A stretch of DNA of 63,972 bases, filler included, from Reclinomonas americana ATCC 50394 (GCA_048213135.1; 21 parts of 21 records of this genome joined end to end with filler, not necessarily neighbours in it); one strand, 5' to 3'. Shown: positions 12,001 through 49,889, counted from the whole stretch's first letter. A program made the numbers and translations. The notes: generated by a model not told the origin, from the sequence alone.

Positions 12001-15000
12001 GCGACTCGTACTGTCTGTGCAGTGCCAGCACGGTTTCGTTCTTCGTGGCTCCCTGCTCGTCGCCGATGAAGCCGTCGACGCGCTTGCCACTCAGAGTCTG
12101 TGGGGNNNNNNNNNNNNNNNNNNNNNNNNNNNNNNNNNNNNNNNNNNNNTTAATTAATTAANNNNNNNNNNNNNNNNNNNNNNNNNNNNNNNNNNNNNNN
12201 NNNNNAAGAGGGAGGAGAGGGAGAAGAGGGAGGAGAGGGAGGAGAGGGAGAAGAGGGAGAAGAGGGAGAAGAGGGAGAAGAGGGAGAAGAGAGGGGGAGG
12301 GGAGGGGATGAGGGAAAGACAAGCATGACAAGAGTATGTGATGAGGAAGAAAATGGAGCAGGGCGAAAGGGAAAGAAGCGCAAGGGAGAGAGGCAAGGAA
12401 AAGAAAGGAGAGAGAGCGAAGAATCGGAGAAAGTCGAGAGGATATGTAGAGATGCAAGGAAAACAAGATGTGAGAGCAAAGACGAGAGAGGAACAATGTG
12501 AGGAGAGGAAGAAAAGAACGGGAGAGAGGACAAGACGAGCGGTGGAAGACGACGAGAAGGGAAATGGAGTACGGCGCAGAGTAAGAGAAGAACGAAAAGG
12601 GAGAAAAGGGGAGACAAGGAAGACGAAGCGAGTAGCATGACGAGAGAAACTTGATACGAGAGAGAGAACAGACGTGCGTCGCAGGGGGAAAGAGAACGAT
12701 CAGTGACACTTCTACTCACCGCCACCAACTCGTACAAGCCACGGCCGTTGCCCGAGGTAAAGTCGGCGATAATGTCGTGCACGGGGGACTTGGTGGCGCA
12801 GGCGTTGAGGTAGTTGCGCAGACGCGTCAAGGAGCTCTTGGAGAACACCTTGCGACTGTGCGGCAAGACAAAATGAGAAAAGAGACGAGGACGAGTCCCG
12901 TTGGCACTTGCGACTAACCGTTGGCGCTCAGACTGCGCGTACGTGGAGCTGCCACTCTCGCTCGCACCAAAGCTGTGCATGCTCATGCGTCCAGAGAACG
13001 ACTCATCGTCGTCGGGTTTCTGCAGCAGCAGCATCACTCGATCAGCACACACACACACATCGTCAGTGGAGGGAGCACCCACAAACCTCCAAGCGCTCGG
13101 TCAGCAAAATCGGATCGTTCGGATCGGCCGGCACCGCCAGTCGATGCGTGGTGCGATTGCTCGTGAGGAACGGGAAATTCGTCAGCAAGCAGTTGTCGGC
13201 CGTGCCCGTGATCGGCAGCGAGAATCGGTTGCCGTCCGTGTCGAAAAAGTCCACCATGGCCGTGAAGCTCATGGGCTTGGTCGACTTGAAGGTGACATGC
13301 ACCGGCACACTCTTCTTGGCACGTGAGACCACCTGACCCTCGGGGAACTCGAGCGACAGTGGCACATGCTCCGTGTCAGCAGGCAGTCGGTACCGCAGTT
13401 CCAGGTTCTCGTATCCTGGATTCAGAAAGCACCAAAAGTGAGTGTGAAGCGCAAGATGGTTTTCTACAAAGCACACACACACACACCCTCGTTGATGACA
13501 CAGAATGTGCCGGAGCACGGAACGCCGAGGGGCACCACCGGCAGCACCAGCTCACGGAGATCGAATGTCAGCATGGGGAAGATGCCGCGACCCTTGACCG
13601 TCAGCTCAATGTACGCCTCCTCCACGTTGCCGTCGAGGTGCAGTGGGATGAATGCCTGGTACGCACGAGTCTCGCGGGGAATGAAGGTCACCTGCGGGTG
13701 ATTGGATTAGAGACAAGGGAAAGACAGAAAGGCAAGTTGCACGAATCAAAAACACACCGACACATCGACCGACTGAGCAACGGCGAGCTGGCCACTGGCC
13801 GGGTGCACGCGGAAGAACTCGGCGTCAGCATTCTCTGAAAAGTCACCAAACTCCCACAAGAGCGCCCTCTCGTCGTCGTTGGTGAGGGTGATGATCATGG
13901 TCGGCGGCTGATCGGCATCCCGCTGCAGCACGACACGGTTGCGGAAATCGCACTCGGTCTGCGAGAGCGAGATGCGCGCATGCAGGCCCTTGGCGCGTAC
14001 GCGGCGGCGGAGTTGCACCACGGACGATGCAATGCCCGCCAGCGTGAGCGGCAGATCAAAGTCGTGCTCCGATTCCTGTGCGTGCGGAAGGGTGGGGTGA
14101 GTGCATGCCAATCGAGACCGTTGCGTGAGCGAGGTGAGTACCTCGGTGGGCGCAAACGACAACAGGCATTCCAGCTGGCGTCTGGGGGGCACCACCAAGC
14201 GGTACCGCGGTCCCTGCAGATCCGACATTGGGTCCTCGTCCTCGCTCAACTCGTCCTCCTCCTCGTCCGAATTGACCTCCAGCAAGCCCACATCGCCTTC
14301 CTCTGCAACAGAGTGTGAGGAAAAGCAACGCGCACCAACACCGGCAACGAATCGCGCTCACCGTGCGAAGTGACGAGAGTGATTGGACCATCGGCGCTGT
14401 CATCGATCGCATCGCCCTCCTGCGTCAGCAACGAGTACTCCATGTAGTCGCCAAAATCAATGTACAGCGTGGCGCTGAAGGAGCTCTTGTTGGTGAACGA
14501 CAGCGGCAGAGTGGCGTTGGAGCCAATGTACACGGCTGTGTGGTAAAGATAAAAGCCACCAGAAATCAGTAACACTGCGGGAGAAGCGCCATCCTTGACA
14601 AACAGAAGAGAACGCACATCCGAAATCCAGCGGATCCTGCGCCGACTCCACCTGCGGGATCTGTGCCTCGGCACGCACCGGCATGCGGATCGACTTGCCA
14701 CCACGAATGTGGATAAAGATAAACGAATCGTAGATTTGTGGCATCGGCGGCTTGAGGGTGATGGTGAACTCTTGCGTCGACTCGATGTTGACACGTCCAC
14801 GCACTGGTGCCACAATAATGCCCGAGATGGGCGGCTCCACCCAGAACACGGCCGGGTTCTCGCCAATGTTGCGCACCAGCACCTTTTTCTCCTTTTGCAA
14901 GCCTGCCAGTCACAAGGAAAGTGAGAGTCACACACAGACACGCACACACACATATGCACGCGCACTCTTCTCTCCCTCTCACTCACTCACTTACACACAC

Positions 15001-15078
15001 ACGCACTCTGTCACACAATCACTCACACACACTCACTCGCTCACTAACACACACACACACACACACACTGACTAATTA

Positions 15079-15119
<41 letters not shown>

Positions 15120-18100
15120 ATTCCACAAACCGACAGCCACCACGCCGAAATCAATGCGCTTCTCCTTGAACTCGAGCTTGGCCTCGGGCACCGAGCCAGT
15201 GCAGCGCAGAATCTTGTCGTTGCCGCCCTCCACTTGCATCACCAGCGGCACGTCAGCCTCGGTGGTCGACCCCGGTCGATACGACACCACCAGTGAGCAG
15301 CGCTCGTCCGGCTCCAGAGTGCCCTCCATCGGCTCCACTGTGAACAGGGAGTTGGCCGGCGGCTCTACAAAGTGCCAGCGCGCCGTGGTGTTGGCCACGT
15401 TTTGCACCACCACGCTCTCGGTGGTGAACGGGTCGAGCACCATGTCGTTGAAGCGGAAGGCCAGGTGGTCTTTCGAGAAGCGAAGCTCGATGGGAACGAC
15501 CTGGGAAGGGGGAAGAGAGAGGGGAAGGGGTGAGAGGGGGAAGAGATGGGGNNNNNNNNNNNNNNNNNNNNNNNNNNNNNNNNNNNNNNNNNNNNTTAAT
15601 TAATTAANNNNNNNNNNNNNNNNNNNNNNNNNNNNNNNNNNNNNNNNNNNNAAGAGAGGGGGAAGAGAGGGGGAAGAGAGGGGGAAGAGAGGGGAAGAGA
15701 GGGAGAGACGGGAAAGAGAAGGGGGAAGAGAAGGGGAAGAGAGCGAAGGGGAAAACGAAGGGGTGAAGAATGAAGAGGGAAGAGAGGGGCAGAGAGATGG
15801 TGAACGAAAGAGAGAGAGAAAATGATGGAAGATGGAAACAAGTGAAAGAACGAGGGTGAAGGTGGGCGAGTGAATATGCTCACTCACCTCCGCGTACACC
15901 AACAGCTTCATGGTGTGGTACTCGTTAATGGTGAAGAACACCGTCGTCTGGAAGTTCTCCGGCGTCTCGGCGTACAAGTGAATGTCGAACGCGGCAGTGG
16001 CACCAGCCGGAATCACCTGGCTTGGCGGGCCACTCTGGTTCAGCTCCTGGCGACCGTCTTGGAATGGGAAGCGGGCAATGACGATCTGGCCGAGGTCATT
16101 GGAGACGTAGAAGCTCTTGACGTTGTGCGAGAAGACGCTGACGCGGCCAAAGTCGAGCACGCGAGGGCCTGCAAATACGGGGGGAAGGGGATTGAGAAAC
16201 AAGGAAAGAGAAGAGGAATAGGAGAAGAAAATGAGAGACGTCGACTCACCAGTGACCACATTCAGCAACTGCTTCGGCGTCAACTCGAGCTTGCACTCGC
16301 GCATCTCGGTCGGCGTGTGCGGCTCGCGCTTGAATTTCTTCTTGACGATGCGGTTCTCGTCGTGCACATGTGTCTTCTTCTTCACCGACTGCGAGGCCAG
16401 CAGGCTCTCCGAGGCCAGCACGCCCGCAATTGGCTTGTCCAAGAACACCGGTGGGTACTCGTCGATGCGAATGTCGAGGCGCGGACTGCGCAAGCCGCTG
16501 GCAGGCTCCATGCCCAGGTCCGTGTCGTTCTCGTACTTGCTCACCAGCTCCCTCTCGCGCTGCGCGCGTACCTTTTCAGGCGACGGGCCACTGCGGATGA
16601 ACGAGTTGTAGTGCTGTTCGTGCTCCTTGCGTGCGACCAACTGCGTGAGCGCCACTTTCTCGGCCTCGGCCTCCTCCGGGGCGCGCATCGACGCACTGAG
16701 AATGTCGCTGGCGGCACGCACTACATAGACACACAGAGTCAGTCGAAGTGGAAACACAAGAAAGAAACCTCTTCCCTTCGCAGAGGACGCAACGTGGCGA
16801 CTGTCGCACAAACGGCCTCTTGGCGGTGGCGGTGGTGGTGCGGAACTGCGCTGGCTGCAAAAAGTTGAGCTTGGGCTGGAAATCCTCCGGCACCTTGTCG
16901 GGTCCGCCCACGAGTTTGCGTCGCTGGCCGACCTCCTCACAGGTGCCGGAGACGCGCAGCGGGAGCACCACGGTGCCGTCGCAGATGCGCAGTTCCAGGG
17001 TGCCGGTGAAGCGGCCGAGCTGGGAGGGGGGGAAGGAGAAGGGTGAGGGGAAGGGGAAGGGGAAGGGGGAGAGAAGGGGGAGGGGAAGAGGAGANNNNNN
17101 NNNNNNNNNNNNNNNNNNNNNNNNNNNNNNNNNNNNNNTTAATTAATTAANNNNNNNNNNNNNNNNNNNNNNNNNNNNNNNNNNNNNNNNNNNNCTCCAC
17201 GTGCGCCGGCACCACCTGCGCGCTCACGTCGAGCAGCCGCGACGGTGCACCCTCCAAATCCACCTGGCAGATGCAGCGCAAAATGCCGAGCTCCGACGGG
17301 TTGATCTCCACCGCCACTGTCGTCTCGCTGTTGGCCTTGACGACGCCAGTCGGCGGCTTGATGCGCACCGGCAAGTCGTCGTCGTACAGAAAGGTGAAAC
17401 GGCCGTCGCGTGAGCCGCGGTTGCGAATGCACACTTCGCGACGGGCCATTTGCTCCGGTACGACCACCCCGAAATCGGTGACAGTGTCCAACTCGTAGTG
17501 CGGGGCGGGCATGGTGCCGGAGAGTGGGATCTCCACCTGGCCCTCCTCGACTTGCACGAGGAGGCGGTCGTACATGTCTTGTTCCTCGGTGCATTTGAAT
17601 TCGAGGGTGATGCGCTCCTCCATGCCTGTGGGGGGATGAGGGGGAAGGGATGAGGGGAAAGGACGGGGAAGGGAAAGGGGGGAAGGGAGAATGAGGGAGA
17701 AGGGGATGAGGGAGAAGGGAGGAGGGAGAAGAGCAAGAGGGGGAAGGGAAAGGGGAGAAGGGATGAGAAGAAGAAGGGAGGAGAGGAAGAAGGGAAAGGG
17801 GAGAAGGGTTGAGGGCAAGAGGGAAAGAGGGGGGAGGGAGAAGGAGACAAGTCGGGAGAGAGGATGTGCTGAGGATAGAGAGAAGCACGAGAAGAAGAGA
17901 CACGAGAGCATAGGTGGAGATAGAAAGTGAAAAGGAAATGGGAGAAGGGCAAGAGGGAGAAGGGAAGAGAGTGAAAACGGAAATGGGAGAAGGGCAACAG
18001 GGAGAAGGGAAGAAAGGGAGAAAGAATAGAGGGAGAAGGGAAAGGGGGGAATGGAGAAGGCGTGGGCCTGACGAGAGAAATGAAAGAGCGTACACACCTG

Positions 18101-18242
18101 GAGCAATGATCTTGCTGGCCGTTCCCTTCACCGAAAAGTAGCGAGTGATTGGGTTGAAGAGGCGGTAGCGCAGCGGCTTGCCGCTGATGTTCTGCACCAG
18201 TAGGGTGGTCGAGTAGGTCCTGCCGACTTCCACGTCTTGGAA
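6087..18242 (-). CDS. CFAP47: Cilia- and flagella-associated protein 47 (Ig-like/ASH repeats plus CH domain); about 30 exons across three gaps, extreme 5' end missing
   Basis: Frame-consistent spliced exons contain FQDVEVGRTY...IAPGMEERI, GPRVLDFGRVSVFS, VDFFDTDGNRFSLPITGTADNCLLT, the CH domain ENVLLTWMTHHF...VTNFDTDLRDCTVFAALFVSHVP, GSITFTNEVVGEFWYNL, LLLRKQSGGVWRF, and the C-terminal KYGKPLVGNLVIDTDEMQWRYEVRGQLPQYKAP. Confidence 0.92.
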
Positions 18243-18402
18243 CTGAGGAGGCGGAGAAGAGCAGGTGAGCAATGATCACAAAAGTAGAAGGTGCGTGTGT
18301 GAGAGATGTGCATGCAGCGATCCAAAGCGACTATCGGGGACAACAGTTAAGTCTGCACTCACGGCATTCTCGTACACACAGAGAGAAAGAGCAAGAGTGC
18401 GT

Positions 18403-42200: not shown

Positions 42201-45200
42201 GTTAGGGTATGTAGGCTATACACCATCGCTTGATTGAGTAGCGCTCAATCCTGTGCGAGTGTGTCTCCCACCATCTGTCGAGTGGGAATCATGCGAATGC
42301 GTGCTGTTTATGCACTGCAGTTTGCTTGAATGTAGAGACCTTGTCTTTTGCGAGAGAGTGTGTGTGTGTGCGTGTGTGTTGCTGCTGCAAGATATCTGTT
42401 GCTTGAGTCACTCGCTTTCACAAGTGTTGTATTGTCGCCACGCAGCATTCTTACCGCCAATTGTGACGCAGGATGTCAATCCATCACTGCGCACTCGTCT
42501 TGCTCGTGCTCTGCAGGTGTGCACGGAATGGGTTGTGTCGAGGTTTGTCGCCTTCCAACGCATCTTCTTTTGCGTTGTTGTGCCTGACTGCTCCATGCAG
42601 TGGATGGTCAGATATCGACATTGAGTGCATCCGCCGCACAAGTAGCGCAATTCTTGGTGAGTGCAACGCACACACTGCGAGGGGACGTGTTCTCTCTCTC
42701 TCTCTGTGTGTTTGTGTATGTGCCTCTCTTTCTCTCTCTGTCACTCTCCGTGTGTTCTCAACGAGTATCTTCGCATCTCCAGGCGATGCATCTGAGGACG
42801 GTGCACCGGCGGAAAAGCGTCGTCGCACTCTTCAATCTTCCTCGTCGTCGTCGGCTGCAGTCGCAGATGATGTGGCGGTATTGTACTTGAAGATGCTGAA
42901 GGTATCGACTGTGCAAAGGAGTGTGCTTCCTTCTCATTCTCACGTTCCTGTTATGGCAGTCTGACGTCGGAGCTGCGCGGTTGCTCTTTCGCTTCGCTCT
43001 CGGTCGTGGTGAAGGCGCATGGAGTGCGTATCTTCGTGACACGTTACTTGCCACTACACGAACTGCGGATGACACGGTGGCGGAGGTGGCGCAACGAGCA
43101 CGACACTTGCAGGCACTGCATCTGTGGACCCCTGACGGTATGCCGTCTGCGTGATATCGTCTGTGAGTTCTGCGCTCAAGAAGTAGAGGTTGCAGGATCC
43201 CGATTGGTTGCCCTCCGTCCACTCTCAACTCCACTGCCACCAGCACTCCTCAAACAAAGTCAATCGCTAACTGCGTCGTCATCCTCCAGGTCTGTCCTTG
43301 ATTTCCACTTGCTGTGGATGCAGTACTGATCGTTCGTTCGTCGCAGCCTCTACGCACAAGCAGAGACGATCTCGCAGATCGGTCGCCTCAGCGTGCACTA
43401 CATGCAGACGGCGCCGTTTCCGAATGGGGTTGCCCTCGGTACGTCTCGTGTGTGACTATCCATGTAGGCAGTGACTCATTCCTGTGTCACCCAGCTCGGT
43501 TTTTGTCCAACGTGCTGCGCAATTTGTCAACGAGTGCTGATGTATCGCGACTGGTGGAGGAGTTGCAGCGCTTGTTGCCGTTTCTGTTGGAAGACACTGT
43601 TGCTGGCTTGCTTCGGTGTGTGGAACAGTTAAGTCACAGCACCTATCCAACGCTAATGAGTGCATGCATCCGCGAGCGCAGTTCTGTCCTCCTCGACGCA
43701 CTGCAGCCAGGGTGTGAAGCTGATGAGGTGCATCGCTCTCGAGTCGCCGGCGTGATGCGACTTGCCACGCAGCAGCCGCAGCTTCCGTGGAGTGCAGTGT
43801 TCGATGGCGACGTTTGCGCTCGTCTCGTGTTCAGTCGCACGCAGGCAGTGCGCCGATCGCGATTGCAGACAGTCGCCAAGCCAGTGGCTGAGCAAGTGAT
43901 TGAGCTGCTGGAGACGGCGCGTGGTGGCACCGCTCGTCTCCTCGGCGAGTGCACGCTGCTGCGCAATCGGCTGTGGTGGTTTGCCACTCGATTCGCTCCA
44001 GCCACTGTGCAGGCACGAATGCTATCCTACGCATGTGGCGATGGAGGGCAGCAGCAGCAACGACAGCAACAGCACCAATGTGCAGATGTGACTGACGATG
44101 ACGAGGAGGATGGGCGGAAGGAGATGGACGATGAAGATGACATTGGTTTGTACGTCACGTTGAAAGGTACGGAGTAGCTCTTCTGACGATATGTGAATTG
44201 CGCAGCGTTGCTGGATGCTGGCAAAAGTGCCAGTGCACCTGCGTTGCCTCCGCCCCGGATGCTGCTGTACACTGAAGCAGGTGAGTGGGTGTGGCGACTT
44301 TCCCGTCTCGTAGTGTCACTGACAGCACTCTCCTGGTGCAGGCACGTTTGTGGACCCGGAGGTGAGCTCCGGAAGCGACAATGCATCGTTCATTGCTCAC
44401 ATACAGCGCAGATTTCGTGGTTTGAGCGGCTGGCGGCGCTGGTGTTTTCTGGCAACCGATGGACGCCAGTCGTTGAATCCGCTGTGCGATCCTGTGAGCG
44501 GTTTCCACGAGGTCCAACGCCCATGCCACCACTGCGTGATCTGCTGCTGTGGGAGTGGCAGCGCGACAGTGCATCTCCGTGGAGCGTCGGTGTGTATCTT
44601 CCGGATTTCAATCTAGCTGCCAGCGCTTCTGACCATGCACTTGTGCAGTGCCATTGCTTCGCACAATGGTGGACGTTCATCTGCCTGCAGTGTTTGGCGA
44701 TTCAGTGACGGATCTGGCACAGGAAGTGCTCGTCGAGGCAGGGAACTTGAGAGATCGGGTGCAAGAGTTTCGTGATGATTCAGCTACAGTCAGTCTTGTG
44801 CTAATGAGTTGCGACAGAGAGCGACGCATCGTGGACACTCTGCAGTGCTTGTTTCAGCGGCTTCACGAACATGCAGCTGCTCAAGGTGGCTCGCGCGATT
44901 GGGGCGAGGTGGTGAGCACTGCAATGCAGCGCGTGCCACTGTCGGCGCAGTCGAGAGTTGCTGAGCGACTGGTGGTACCCGTGGTCGTCTCGCTGCGTCC
45001 ACCACGTGACCAAGCATCGTCGATGGCGTATGCAGGACACCAGCTGCGCCAACTGGACCTGTGCATGTCAATACTCGGTGATGGAGACGCACTCCGTCGA
45101 TTTCTGCCGCATTTTCTGGTGCAGGCGTGCGAGGCTGGTCTTGTGGCCTCCGCGCTCCTCTCGCAGTGTCGGGCGGTGGCCTCGTGGTGTGGTCGAATGG

Positions 45201-45726
45201 GTGCTGAATACTGCCAGCAATTGATCGGCGATGCCTTGCAGTGCGCGGTGCTCTCCATGCGGTGTGTCTGCATGCTATGAGTGCGGTGGATGAGTGTCAA
45301 TACTGATAGCGCAGAGCTAGGGTGACCAAGGACGCGGCAGATGGCTTCGTGGCTGATCTGCGAGAGGCCATCATGTCGGCACTTCCGTCTTCAGTTGTGA
45401 CGACGGCTTCTGGAGAAATGTGCACGCAGCAGCCGAGGTCAGCGGGCAACAACTGTTGCTTGAGCACCTCGTCTGATCCTGATTGCTGGTTGTCGCAGAA
45501 CTCCATCGCCAGTCAGCATGCTGGTCGACACCGCAGTCTTCCAGCGCTCGCCTTCACCTCCTCCTCCACCGCCACCACCACCACCAGCACCACCTACTCG
45601 ACCGGCTGCAACACTCGCATTGCCTCTGCGATCCACCACACCAGCGAAACCAATGCTGGTGCGCAGAACAACGGTGCGACGATGAACGTGGATGACGCAG
45701 CGACTGCATTACATTCGGGAGTGTAG
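39250..45726 (+). CDS. Large multi-exon hypothetical protein, Leu-rich and probably alpha-helical
   Basis: Chain of exons with GT-AG borders from MQCEWAALV... to ...ALHSGV*. The junctions I checked preserve frame. No family recognised. Confidence 0.65.
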
Positions 45727-46000
45727 CTATTCTGACATGGCTTCGGGAGCCGCCTCCTCTTCTCGTGATGGTAGTGCAATGCCCCTGCAAAGAGAGAAAT
45801 GTGAGGGACGAGGATGAGAGGGATGGGGCGAGCCAAAGGCGAGCAAGGAAGGTGAAGGGAGACGAGCAACGGGTGAGGAAGAGCACGAAAGAATTAACCA
45901 ACAGCACCGAGATGAAGCACGACACAAGGCAGAGTGAGACAATCGCACACTATCGCTCCCTCAGAAATCACACTCTTCTCCCTTTCTCTCCCCCTTCTTC

Positions 46001-46502
46001 TCACCTCGCCTCCGCCGCACTCTTCGCGCGCTTCAACAACCGCTCCTCCACAATGTTGGCCTCCTGGATGCGCAGATTCTTCTCTGCCAGCTCATACATG
46101 GCGTTCTCCAGCATGGCCAGCGCCTCACTCGATCCCATCTGCGACGACTTGCGTTTCCTGTTCACATCGTCGACTTCGGCGCGTGTCGAATCCAGCCGCG
46201 CCGTCGCCTGCCGTCCATAGTCCTCCACCAACGTGTTGCTCTTGCGCCACGCGTTGGGTCCGTACTTTTTCGCCAGCTCCAGGTTGATGATGCGCGTGCT
46301 CTGGTGCTGCAGCANNNNNNNNNNNNNNNNNNNNNNNNNNNNNNNNNNNNNNNNNNNNTTAATTAATTAANNNNNNNNNNNNNNNNNNNNNNNNNNNNNN
46401 NNNNNNNNNNNNNNGCAGGCGAGCGGTGGCCACGGAGGATTCCCACTCGGCGGGGTCGTCCGAGGAGGGTCGGGGGAGTTTGTAGCGCGAGAGGTCGACG
46501 TC
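46001..46502 (-). CDS. BCAS2: Pre-mRNA splicing factor SPF27/BCAS2, last exon
   Basis: DVDLSRYKLP...EWESSVATARLLLQHQSTRIINLELAKKYGPNAW...VNRKRKSSQ are BCAS2 motifs. The exon is split by a linker. Confidence 0.9.
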
Positions 46503-47875
46503 CTAGGTGGGAAAGGGGGAAGGGGGCGAGGGAAAGGGGGGAAGGGGGTGAGGGAAAGGGGGGAAGGTGAGGGAAGGGGGTGAGGAGAGAGAAGGGGGTG
46601 AGGGAAAGGGGGAAAGGAGAGGGAAGGGGGTGAGGGAAAGGGGTGAGGAGAGAGAAGAGGGGGAGGGAAAGGGGGAAGGAGAGGGAAGGGCATGACATCA
46701 TGAAAGAGAGGCTTGCTATGTGCAGAGTGTGCAAGTCGAGCAGTCCTTGCAGACTCTCACCACGAGGTGTGTGAGGGAGAGAAGAGAGAAAGGAGAAGAG
46801 AGAAGACAGTCAGCACTGCTGCACTCGCAACCGTCACGCAGAGACGCAAGTGTGCATGAGCAAATGAGAGACTCGCATCCCTCGAGACTTTCAGCGCGCG
46901 GTGTGCAAAGGAGGGGGAAGTGAGAAGAGAGCAGAGGGAAACAGAGATGGAGAGCACGCCCTGTTGCACTTGCATGGCTTGCGCATGAAACAGAGGCTTT
47001 CTTTGTGGAGAGTGTACATGAACGAGTGAGAGACTCGCATCCATCGAGACTTTCAGCGAGTGGTGAGCAAAGGAGGGGGAAGAGAGAAGAGAGCAGAGAG
47101 CAAGTGAATAGAGAGCACGACATGTTTCGCTCTTCCATGGCTTGTGCATGAAAGAGATGCTTGCTCTGTACACGTCGAGCAGTAACGTTGCATCCCTCGA
47201 GAATCCAACCGCAAAGTGTGTGCGCGGTGTACAAAAGAGGAAGAGGAGAGCAGAGAGAAAGAGAGATGGACACCATACCCAGCGTCACTCTCGACTGCCA
47301 TGCAGCATGAATGAGTGAGAGACTTGCACTGCGCAGAGTGCAAGTGAGAGAAAGAGTAACTCAGCATCAACTTTTGTCTCTCACACACAGAACTCATGCT
47401 ACTCCCTTTCTCCCTCCCTCCCTCTCTCTNNNNNNNNNNNNNNNNNNNNNNNNNNNNNNNNNNNNNNNNNNNNTTAATTAATTAANNNNNNNNNNNNNNN
47501 NNNNNNNNNNNNNNNNNNNNNNNNNNNNNCTCTCTCTCTCTCTCTCTCTGTCACGCATTCAAGTCACGTGCATTCTCTGTGAGATTTCCCTTGCATTTCT
47601 GACAGATTGTGCGAGTTGTCTTGCATCTTTCTCTTTTTTCGCTCTCTCTCACACACACTCTCTTCTGTGCGCTGCTTTGAGCTCAGTATCTGCACCGTGC
47701 TTCAGTGTCTCTGCATAGCTGAGTCTCTCGTCAACATCCGCCTTGCATTTTCACTTATTGAGCGAGTTGTCTTGCCGCTCCTTCCCTCTCCTCCCCCCTT
47801 CTCCCTCCCCTCCATCTCCCTCTCCCTCTCCCTCCCCCTCTCCCTCCCCCCTCTCCTTCCCCCCTTCTCCCCCAG

Positions 47876-48886
47876 GCCCCCGTCGTGGACGTCGTCGTCG
47901 CGGTGGAGAACCCCGCCCTCTGGCATCATGAGAACATGCTGTTGAACCGACAAGACTACTCCACACTGGCAGTGCTCATGGGTTTGTCGTTTTATTTCGC
48001 GCCGACAGTGATCACCTTGATGCCGACGTGTGGCGCTGCAGGTGGTCGACTGGTGGGCGGAATCGCGCAGAGCTTTGGTGCACGAGTGTGGTACAATCCG
48101 TATGCTACTGTGGATGGAGTGGTGTGTTGTTGTATTGCTTGCTCCATCTCTCTTTGCCGCCTTTCCCTGCTCACCACCCTCCCCCAGCGCGTCAAATACG
48201 GCGTGGTGAGCATGTCAGCACTGGAGAACGACTTGCGGCACTGGGAAACACTATTCCTCGCCGGCCGGTTGCACAAGCCGGTGTGCACCACTCTTTGTCA
48301 TGCCCTTGCTTGCTTGTGCCCCCATGTGGCCTTACTTTGTCGGTAGGTCAAGTTCATTCACGGCGAAGCACCACTGCCGGAGCATCTGGAAGAGGCACTG
48401 CAGCAGAACCTGCGTAGTGCGGTGTACACGGCGCTGCTGATGCTGCCGACGCACTTTACTGTGGGCGACTTGTACCAAAAGATTACTGGCCTCTCGTACA
48501 CGGGTTTGTTTGCAGGCGTTTCTGCGGATACATCAGCTGTTCGCGACTGACGTCTGTGACGCAGGCGATCCACGCATGGGCATGGCAGAGAATCCCGACA
48601 AGGTGCACAACATCGTGCACGGTCACCTGCCACTCTTTGAAGAGCTCTACGCACCACTCCTGCCATCCATACGCGGTCTCCAAGCCAATGTCGACACTGG
48701 AAATTGCTCGGTGAGTGACTTCTCTCTCTCTCCTTTCCTGTCTCTTCATCTTGCGTGTGTGTACGAGTGCGTCTGTATGTCTCTCTGTCTCTCTATCTGT
48801 CTCTCTCTCTCTCACTCTGTGCGTGCGTGTCTGTGCGAGTGTGTGTCTGTCTGTCTCTCTCTATATGTCTGTCTGTCTGTCTCTCC

Positions 48887-48924
<38 letters not shown>

Positions 48925-49889
48925 TGTGTTTGTGTGTGTGTTTTTCTGCCCTTCCTCTCACCATTTTACAGTTTGACCACTCGCCCGAGTCCGTGGCGCA
49001 CGCGCTGAGTCAGCTCCCATGGTGGCTGCAGCAAGATGTGCTGGAGACGTGGCGCGGTGCCTCGCCACCAGAGCCACCGCGGGACGGTTTGTCGCGCTCT
49101 CCTCCTCGCCCCATTGTCAGCGCTGACGCAATCCCTGTACAGGCCTGCTGCGCATCACCTCGCTGGATCTGGTGGGCGAAACGGTCACCATCTCCAACGT
49201 CGGCTACCTGCCAGTGTCACTCGAGGGGCACGTGCTGATGGATCACCAAACACACATTGGTCAGGCGAAGCGCGGACGATACACCTTCCCCGCCGGTGTG
49301 TGACAAAAGGAACTGTGATACGATGACATCGGTGGACGACTAATATCTGTGCGTTGCGTGAACAGGAATGATGCTGGGTCCAGGCCGAGCGGTCACACTG
49401 CACAGCGGGCCGCGAGCCAAGCGCACACGACAGTACGTTTGTTGATGAGAGAGATGATCTCGTAGCCCGCTGATTCGCTTCTGCACAGAACATACGACGG
49501 CACCTCGCACATCAACTGGATGTACTATCGAGTGTGGAACAATGACGGTGACGTGGCGTATCTGCTGGACTCGCAGGGTGCCGAGGTGCACCGTTTGGGA
49601 CGTGGTCCGCGTGGTGAGCAGTCGTGCACACGCCGCGATCTTTCCCCCGCAACCGTTGTCTCACCTCATGGCAGGCAATGATCCACTCTACGAGATGGCA
49701 CTCCACGAGCACGATCGGGGGGCGTCACGCGTACCCTCACTGGTCGAGCAGGCCGTCAGTCGACGGGTGCGCTCGAGCATGAATGGTCAGTATTTCCTCG
49801 GTGTGCTGTCGGCGGGCCCACTCGGCGCCCTCCGATATGTGCGGGAGAAGGTGGAGAAGAACTGGCGAGTGCGTGCCACGCGGAGGTGA
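47876..49889 (+). CDS. TAM41: Mitochondrial phosphatidate cytidylyltransferase TAM41 with an inserted lamin-tail domain; 5' end missing
   Basis: VDVVVAVENPALWHHENMLLN, VKYGVVS...DLRHWETLFLAGRLHKP, NLRSAV, ITGLSYTGDPRMGMAENPDKVHNIV, and the C-terminal SS..QYFLGVLSAG...YVREKVEKNW. Confidence 0.93.

Follow-up and report, generated by a model that had tools for sequence, protein, structure and literature searches.

Tam41 is the gateway enzyme to cardiolipin. The structure of SpTam41 was reportedly described by Jiao et al. in 2019. According to passages of PMC7018664, SpTam41 is composed of a nucleotidyltransferase (NTase) part (residues 28-189), a winged-helix part (residues 190-319) and a C-terminal, positively charged helix of amphipathic character that binds the membrane, and the access of Tam41 to its membrane-bound substrate rests on this one helix.

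The lamin tail domain (LTD, PF00932) is named from nuclear lamins, with which protist lamin-like proteins share it; as stated in a part of PMC5630835 (Koreny and Field 2016), non-lamin LTD-like proteins are present in several eukaryotes. Passages of PMC6085458 that cite Mans et al. 2004 state that a membrane-directing role was proposed for prokaryotic LTDs that occur beside membrane-associated hydrolases; the partner families named there are metallo-beta-lactamase, synaptojanin and calcineurin-like phosphoesterase. The original prediction for the locus described here had likewise placed bacterial LTDs beside membrane-associated hydrolases, in agreement with these passages, but its example, phospholipase D, is not among the families that they name. 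In the nuclease ExeM of Shewanella, which carries an LTD together with nuclease domains, the LTD is dispensable for degradation of extracellular DNA in vivo and its removal lowers the in vitro activity; the same passages describe the role of LTDs as not elucidated (PMC6085458). The plasmid-encoded protein WP_227777985.1 of Haladaptatus pallidirubidus (NZ_CP085304.1, L002 578-3241) combines an SNase domain with four tandem LTD repeats, which score 271.5 bits in all. It represents another LTD-nuclease fusion of the ExeM kind, with very acidic repeats. Symmetric domain cassettes bounded by phase-1 introns on both sides are of the type associated with exon shuffling.

The window, i.e. the whole stretch of DNA that was analysed (63,972 nucleotides, filler included), belongs to an intron-rich organism with a GC content of about 55% and contains putative genes of cilium type. 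A gene model of ten exons was built on its + strand at 47876-49889, within a contig (47530-50450) that is a single uninterrupted stretch between two assembly gaps. The coding sequence of 1257 nt is open through to the stop codon. All nine introns are of GT-AG type, eight of them 56-70 nt long and one 261 nt long. The features of the locus are listed in Table 1.

Table 1. Predicted features of the TAM41 locus; positions are counted from the first letter of the window, and scores are those of single exons.
Feature	Position	Strand	Description
Assembly gap	47430-47529		two runs of 44 N around the TTAATTAATTAA linker
TAM41 exon A	47876-47981	+	PF09139 27.5 bits, profile 35-66; AG acceptor, GT donor
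TAM41 exon B	48042-48121 (alternative 3' end 48118)	+	PF09139 13.5 bits, profile 71-93
TAM41 exon C (KYGVV...AGRLHKP core)	48188-48280	+	PF09139 45.6 bits, profile 96-125; bears family-invariant residues
TAM41 exon D	48347-48503	+	PF09139 44.2 bits, profile 133-173
TAM41 exon E	48565-48710	+	PF09139 35.3 bits, profile 175-216
TAM41 exon F, winged-helix end with conserved LP motif	48972-49086	+	ends in phase 1; no Pfam match alone; matches the LP column in 22 homologues
Intron F/G	49087-49142	+	56 nt, phase 1, GT-AG, CTGAC 15 nt before the acceptor
LTD exon G	49143-49295	+	153 nt; PF00932 best Pfam match, 15.0-17.8 bits (higher value with the surrounding ORF), profile 8-55
LTD exon H, mid-domain	49366-49432	+	67 nt; required for the full profile score
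LTD exon I, WNNDGD...LLD..G motif	49489-49613	+	125 nt; PF00932 16.4 bits, profile 83-107
Intron I/J	49614-49674	+	61 nt, phase 1, GT-AG
TAM41 exon J, basic C-terminal region with conserved membrane-binding helix and stop (TGA)	49675-49889	+	PF09139 21.4 bits, profile 277-322; pI 10.81

An exon-by-exon Pfam scan placed exons A-E colinearly on the Tam41_Mmp37 profile (PF09139) at positions 35-216 and exon J at positions 277-322. Exons A, C, D and E each exceed the PF09139 cut-off of 24 bits, and exons B and J do not. In the A-C stretch, all 15 invariant columns of a 26-row TAM41 alignment are present, the missing 5' part of the gene lying outside this comparison. The spliced protein matched all 156 fetched TAM41 proteins at E <= 1e-3, and exon J could be aligned with the conserved Q..KG..(T/S)AG....Y...K..K segment of 22 homologues. 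By sequence, the host gene is thus TAM41/Mmp37, the mitochondrial CDP-diacylglycerol synthase, as had been predicted. The likeness to canonical Tam41/TAMM41 (yeast Tam41, SpTam41) covers the PF09139 profile, the invariant residues as far as these were compared, and the basic C-terminal helix, and the same reaction is expected. [quoted passage not shown] With the A-C stretch as query, HMMER returned 800 proteins at E <= 0.001 from 1.84 billion representatives; the best of them reached 70 bits at 46% identity, so that the records contain no close relative. Sources named for ten top TAM41 matches were an amoebozoan transcriptome, a fungus and unnamed metagenome proteins, which do not point to a lineage.

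In the assembly the gene is cut off at its 5' end, and its intactness cannot be claimed. The 5' exons, for PF09139 positions 1-34 and a presequence if there is one, are missing in the gap at 47430-47529 or beyond it. No N-terminal motif of the YGS type (YGSGV type in the consensus) was found in any + frame of 44000-47900; since this region includes the gap, the N-terminal part may have escaped assembly and need not be lacking from the gene.

Between exons F and J lie three exons (G, H and I) of 345 nt in total that are spliced to a block of 115 residues, each with an AG acceptor and a GT donor. The original prediction had given these exons with exact coordinates, lengths and phases, and the spliced peptide was identical to the predicted one. 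The spliced model also confirmed that the block is flanked by phase-1 introns on both sides and could be omitted without a frameshift: a direct join of F to J (49086 to 49675) keeps the frame. Exon G alone (153 nt) and exons H and I together (192 nt) are multiples of three as well. Inside the block, intron G/H is in phase 1 and intron H/I in phase 2. A CTRAY-like motif was read by eye 15-25 nt before the acceptor in several introns, including those around exons G-I. The frame of each LTD exon meets stop codons within a few codons of the splice sites, with the exception of the frame after exon I, which is open through intron I/J. As had been anticipated, the domain is hidden from a list of ORFs, since the ORFs around exons G, I and H measure only 58, 71 and 27 aa, respectively. 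At the 5' end of the model, a single frame stays open from exon A through exon B to exon C, across both intervening introns (60 and 66 nt; 47876-48283, +), and an ORF finder would therefore give an ORF of 194 residues containing two translated introns.

The identity of the block was assessed with two profiles. PF00932 was the best Pfam match of exon G, with 15.0 bits (profile 10-53), or 17.8 bits (profile 8-55) when the surrounding ORF was included, and also of exon I, with 16.4 bits (profile 83-107); both exons score below the PF00932 cut-off (gathering score) of 34.3 bits. Exon H (21 aa) alone had no Pfam match. The single-exon scores, G with its ORF plus I, sum to 34.2 bits with exon H left out, the Pfam scan being one of single exons and not of the spliced block itself. 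That two neighbouring exons would both choose PF00932 among 24,736 families, at colinear and complementary positions, by chance appears very unlikely.

A second LTD profile was built from the four repeats of the single H. pallidirubidus protein, each of which passes the Pfam cut-off (67.7-87.1 bits). This protein, whose gene is annotated as lamin tail domain-containing, had been selected through a tblastn search of plasmids with exon I, which gave two weak matches, the one to this protein at E = 8. The spliced block matched the four-repeat profile with 36.6 bits in one continuous alignment (block residues 9-106, profile 19-103) that runs through all three exons; as the protein was picked by a match of exon I, the share of exon I in this score is not fully independent. 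The parts contributed by G and H and the Pfam matches are independent of the choice of profile. None of 2001 controls (2000 shuffles and the reversed block) reached 10 bits, the maximum being 8.9, and the form of the protein without the block had no match to this profile. Partial joins scored 3.5 (G), 2.2 (H), 19.1 (I), 14.8 (G+H), 23.6 (H+I) and 21.9 bits (G+I without H). Every one of them remains below the whole, which indicates that the proposed splicing makes the domain whole.

Comparison of the block with the archaeal repeats revealed 26-34 identical residues among 86 aligned ones and the common motifs Y.FP, G..V.LH.G and WNN.GD..YL.D..G. In a protein atlas, used as a source of leads only, an LTD cluster was the third match of exon G (0.85) and the first named cluster of exon I was 'LTD domain-containing protein' (0.92), all of them bacterial; the look-alikes of the LTD are prokaryotic in type. 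Taken from these profile matches, the three exons are predicted to encode one complete LTD of about 100 residues, and the lamin tail identity proposed for the block was borne out. That they are real LTD exons within the TAM41 gene is held with high confidence. Antisense and off-frame ORFs over the block matched no Pfam family, and no second LTD was found within the window.

In an alignment of 22 TAM41 proteins, the block follows the conserved LP motif of the winged-helix part and precedes the conserved C-terminal segment. This is the position originally proposed, between the TAM41 core and the conserved C-terminal helix. The alignment columns filled by the block hold 0-50 residues in the 22 homologues, mostly of low complexity, as against the 115-residue block with a predicted LTD fold found here. 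The position of the block in this alignment, taken together with the domain layout of SpTam41, would place the LTD in a flexible linker adjoining the membrane anchor. The block is basic, with a pI of 9.76, and so is exon J; the pI of the core (exons A-F) is 5.69. In its composition the block resembles the rest of the gene: its GC3 is 0.722 compared with 0.714 in the rest of the coding sequence, and the preferred synonymous codons of the core are used at 54 of 109 positions in the block and at 155 of 288 positions in the core itself. GC content is 0.47-0.50 in introns G/H and H/I. The matching GC3 and codon use, together with the division of the block by two spliceosomal introns, exclude contamination or recent transfer.

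The prokaryotic LTD-enzyme fusions, i.e. WP_227777985.1 and ExeM, share with this protein the LTD family and its motifs. A further likeness, on the passages of PMC6085458, is the joining of the LTD to an enzyme whose substrates are phosphate esters or anhydrides and which works at a membrane or close to one. The differences lie in the arrangement and in the partner. Here the LTD is single, internal rather than terminal, and encoded on three spliced exons, and the enzyme is a eukaryotic nucleotidyltransferase of the mitochondrial matrix and not a secreted or surface hydrolase. Moreover, the block and the archaeal repeats differ in charge, with a basic pI of 9.8 and an acidic one of 4.05, respectively. 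Nuclear lamins and protist lamin-like proteins have the LTD family in common with the block, but the TAM41-LTD protein contains no coiled-coil rod and its context is not nuclear. The locus further resembles the phase 1-1 cassettes of exon shuffling in that the block is bounded by phase-1 introns and could be inserted or removed without a frameshift; unlike them, it contains two introns of its own (phases 1 and 2), and the domain would be intracellular and mitochondrial. We know of no donor gene with the same exon structure.

Searches for the same architecture elsewhere gave no second example. Among the best 150 of the 800 proteins from the HMMER search, PF00932 was absent from all (E <= 0.01) and PF09139 present in all. 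The block itself matched none of 156 TAM41 proteins (the best 150 and 6 further ones), the best E value being 0.36. In metagenome contigs, no LTD was found near TAM41 in 80 loci (the best 80 of 409 confirmed ones, with up to 6 kb on each side), where the archaeal profile gave a best E value of 2.9. One block match in a metagenome locus (L008, E = 0.0085) came from an ORF antisense to the TAM41 match itself and was rejected. A full-text literature search returned no Tam41 with a lamin tail domain and no lamin tail domain in connection with cardiolipin; the supplementary list of non-lamin LTD-like proteins in PMC5630835 may bear on the novelty. The earlier statement that no TAM41-LTD fusion is known thus stands over the proteins, loci and literature searched. 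TAM41 with a predicted LTD appears new among the TAM41 proteins and loci examined, none of which carries this domain.

The LTD exons were also searched for relatives independently of TAM41. Word-based searches yielded 18 candidates among longer proteins, none of them at E <= 1, and no candidate among proteins of similar length. In metagenome contigs, none of 593 pattern matches was confirmed, and in contigs of prokaryote genomes one of 353 was. This sole match, from a bacterial MAG, spans 20 residues, is partly intron-derived and was taken as chance; PF00932 was absent there as well as in 201 genomes of the phylum. A tblastn search of plasmids with the exon G ORF gave six records (best E = 0.5), none of them annotated as LTD. 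In a sequence search of the PDB, exon G had no match and exon I had five at E >= 0.06, none of which was an LTD.

The best explanation of these observations, which as a whole falls a little short of an even chance, is that real coding exons give TAM41 a complete LTD in its linker and that this LTD serves as a membrane-proximal accessory module. The LTD would have been inserted into a linker that is variable by nature and connects the catalytic core (nucleotidyltransferase and winged helix) with the C-terminal amphipathic helix, by which the enzyme would be attached to the inner membrane on the matrix side. As a basic module close to the membrane, it may add avidity for the acidic inner membrane or dock a partner, presumably with the chemistry of the enzyme unchanged. 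A membrane-proximal module is favoured because the block is basic, lies directly before the basic anchor helix and belongs to a family for whose prokaryotic members a membrane-directing role was proposed. The basic charge of the block is compatible with many roles. Given that the block is included, a targeting or binding role of the LTD appears about as probable as its absence. With regard to origin, insertion into a pre-existing phase-1 intron would explain the symmetric phases and exon shuffling is a plausible route; equal flanking phases are necessary for exon shuffling and are no proof of it.

Several other explanations were weighed against this one. The block could be an optional cassette that is alternatively spliced, so that the cell makes a canonical TAM41 along with an LTD-bearing isoform, perhaps in a regulated manner. 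In favour of this, skipping of G-I would keep the frame and leave a linker within the length range of the homologues, and the two smaller units (G alone, H+I) are in frame too. However, the splice sites of the block are like the constitutive ones, in that their donors (GTTTGT, GTGTGT and GTGAG) recur and the introns are of similar length, and partial skipping would break the domain, as the lower scores of the partial joins indicate; optional splicing is considered unlikely. Inclusion of the block in the main mRNA is considered probable. A single metatranscriptomic run covered 5% of the sampled words of 47877-49900, placed nothing on 48972-49900 and is silent on inclusion versus skipping. The lack of an expression signal on 48972-49900 in this run, as well as the occurrence of a longer intron (261 nt) in the gene, would also be compatible with exons that are dead or were never used, in which case F would always be spliced to J and the LTD pieces would be a relic in one intron of 588 nt. 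Against such a relic stand three open segments in register, with canonical splice sites exactly where the frame needs them and without a stop codon or frameshift, the full-length profile score, and a GC3 at coding level in contrast to the lower GC of the introns inside the block; this possibility is regarded as highly improbable. Even less can be said for an artefact by which misassembly or a contaminant put foreign LTD sequence inside the gene. The scaffold is indeed gapped on both sides (47430-47529 and 50451-50550), but the block is flanked by TAM41 exons within a single contig free of gaps, is split by two spliceosomal introns and shows the composition and frame of the gene, and a misassembly could have arisen only through two breakpoints less than 600 nt apart in continuous contig. 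An artefact is thus extremely unlikely.

If the exons are real and used, the function of the LTD can still be read differently. It is possible, at a rather low probability, that a folded domain landed in a permissive linker and persists there as a tolerated passenger without a specific binding role. The linkers of the 22 homologues, 0-50 residues long and mostly of low complexity, suggest that insertions are tolerated at this site, the block occurs in no other TAM41 examined, and the LTD of ExeM is dispensable for the main activity in vivo on the passages of PMC6085458. The intact frame over three exons, the kept motifs and the adapted codon use suggest maintenance instead, an argument that is weak without relatives. 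Binding of a phosphate-rich polymer or a nucleic acid in place of a membrane, for example as a tether near the mitochondrial nucleoid, would fit the basic charge of the block and the frequent occurrence of prokaryotic LTDs beside nucleases and phosphoesterases (the Haladaptatus SNase protein with four LTDs; ExeM, in passages of PMC6085458). Those passages show no LTD that binds DNA, however, and the site adjoining the membrane helix favours a role on the membrane side, so that only a very small chance is given to this reading. Returning to the accessory membrane module, a more far-reaching version was considered, in which a lineage of flagellated, little-sampled eukaryotes captured an LTD of prokaryotic type in a phase-1 intron of TAM41 and uses it as a second membrane anchor, specific for a lipid or a partner and possibly included or skipped on demand. 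This scenario is speculative and on balance doubtful. If true, it would be the first case of an LTD whose role at an intracellular membrane is defined, and mitochondrial lipid synthesis would gain its first example of a domain cassette under regulation. An inert LTD would amount to one more lineage-specific domain insertion. TAM41 with an LTD beside its membrane helix would offer a simple natural test case for the role of LTDs outside lamins. Moreover, the locus illustrates that domains at the level of exons escape ORF-based screening in unannotated protist genomes.

The surroundings of the gene were inspected as well. On either side of TAM41 (46690-47429 and 49915-50320) there are degenerate tandem repeats, spaced at about 117-163 nt and adjoined by G/A-rich or C/T-rich microsatellites. 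Between 40000 and 56000, the gaps at 46315-46414, 47430-47529, 50451-50550, 52404-52503 and 53756-53855 all consist of 44 N, TTAATTAATTAA and another 44 N. The linker TTAATTAATTAA places a stop codon in all frames and marks the scaffold as a chain of joined contigs, so that distances, and perhaps the order, across gaps are not given. Upstream of TAM41, on the - strand, pieces of an ORF at 46001-46502 belong to a gene interrupted by an assembly gap; we take them to resemble a splicing factor of the BCAS2/SPF27 type. A run of long, exon-like open segments extends over 6115-18330 on the - strand. These segments presumably resemble exons for a hydin/CFAP-type protein, very large and associated with cilia, which suggests a flagellated organism. 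Finally, an apparently intronless open frame of 372 residues at 59532-60650 on the + strand contains regular WD40-like repeats (VTPDG.H.VSGS.D.TVRVWSL).
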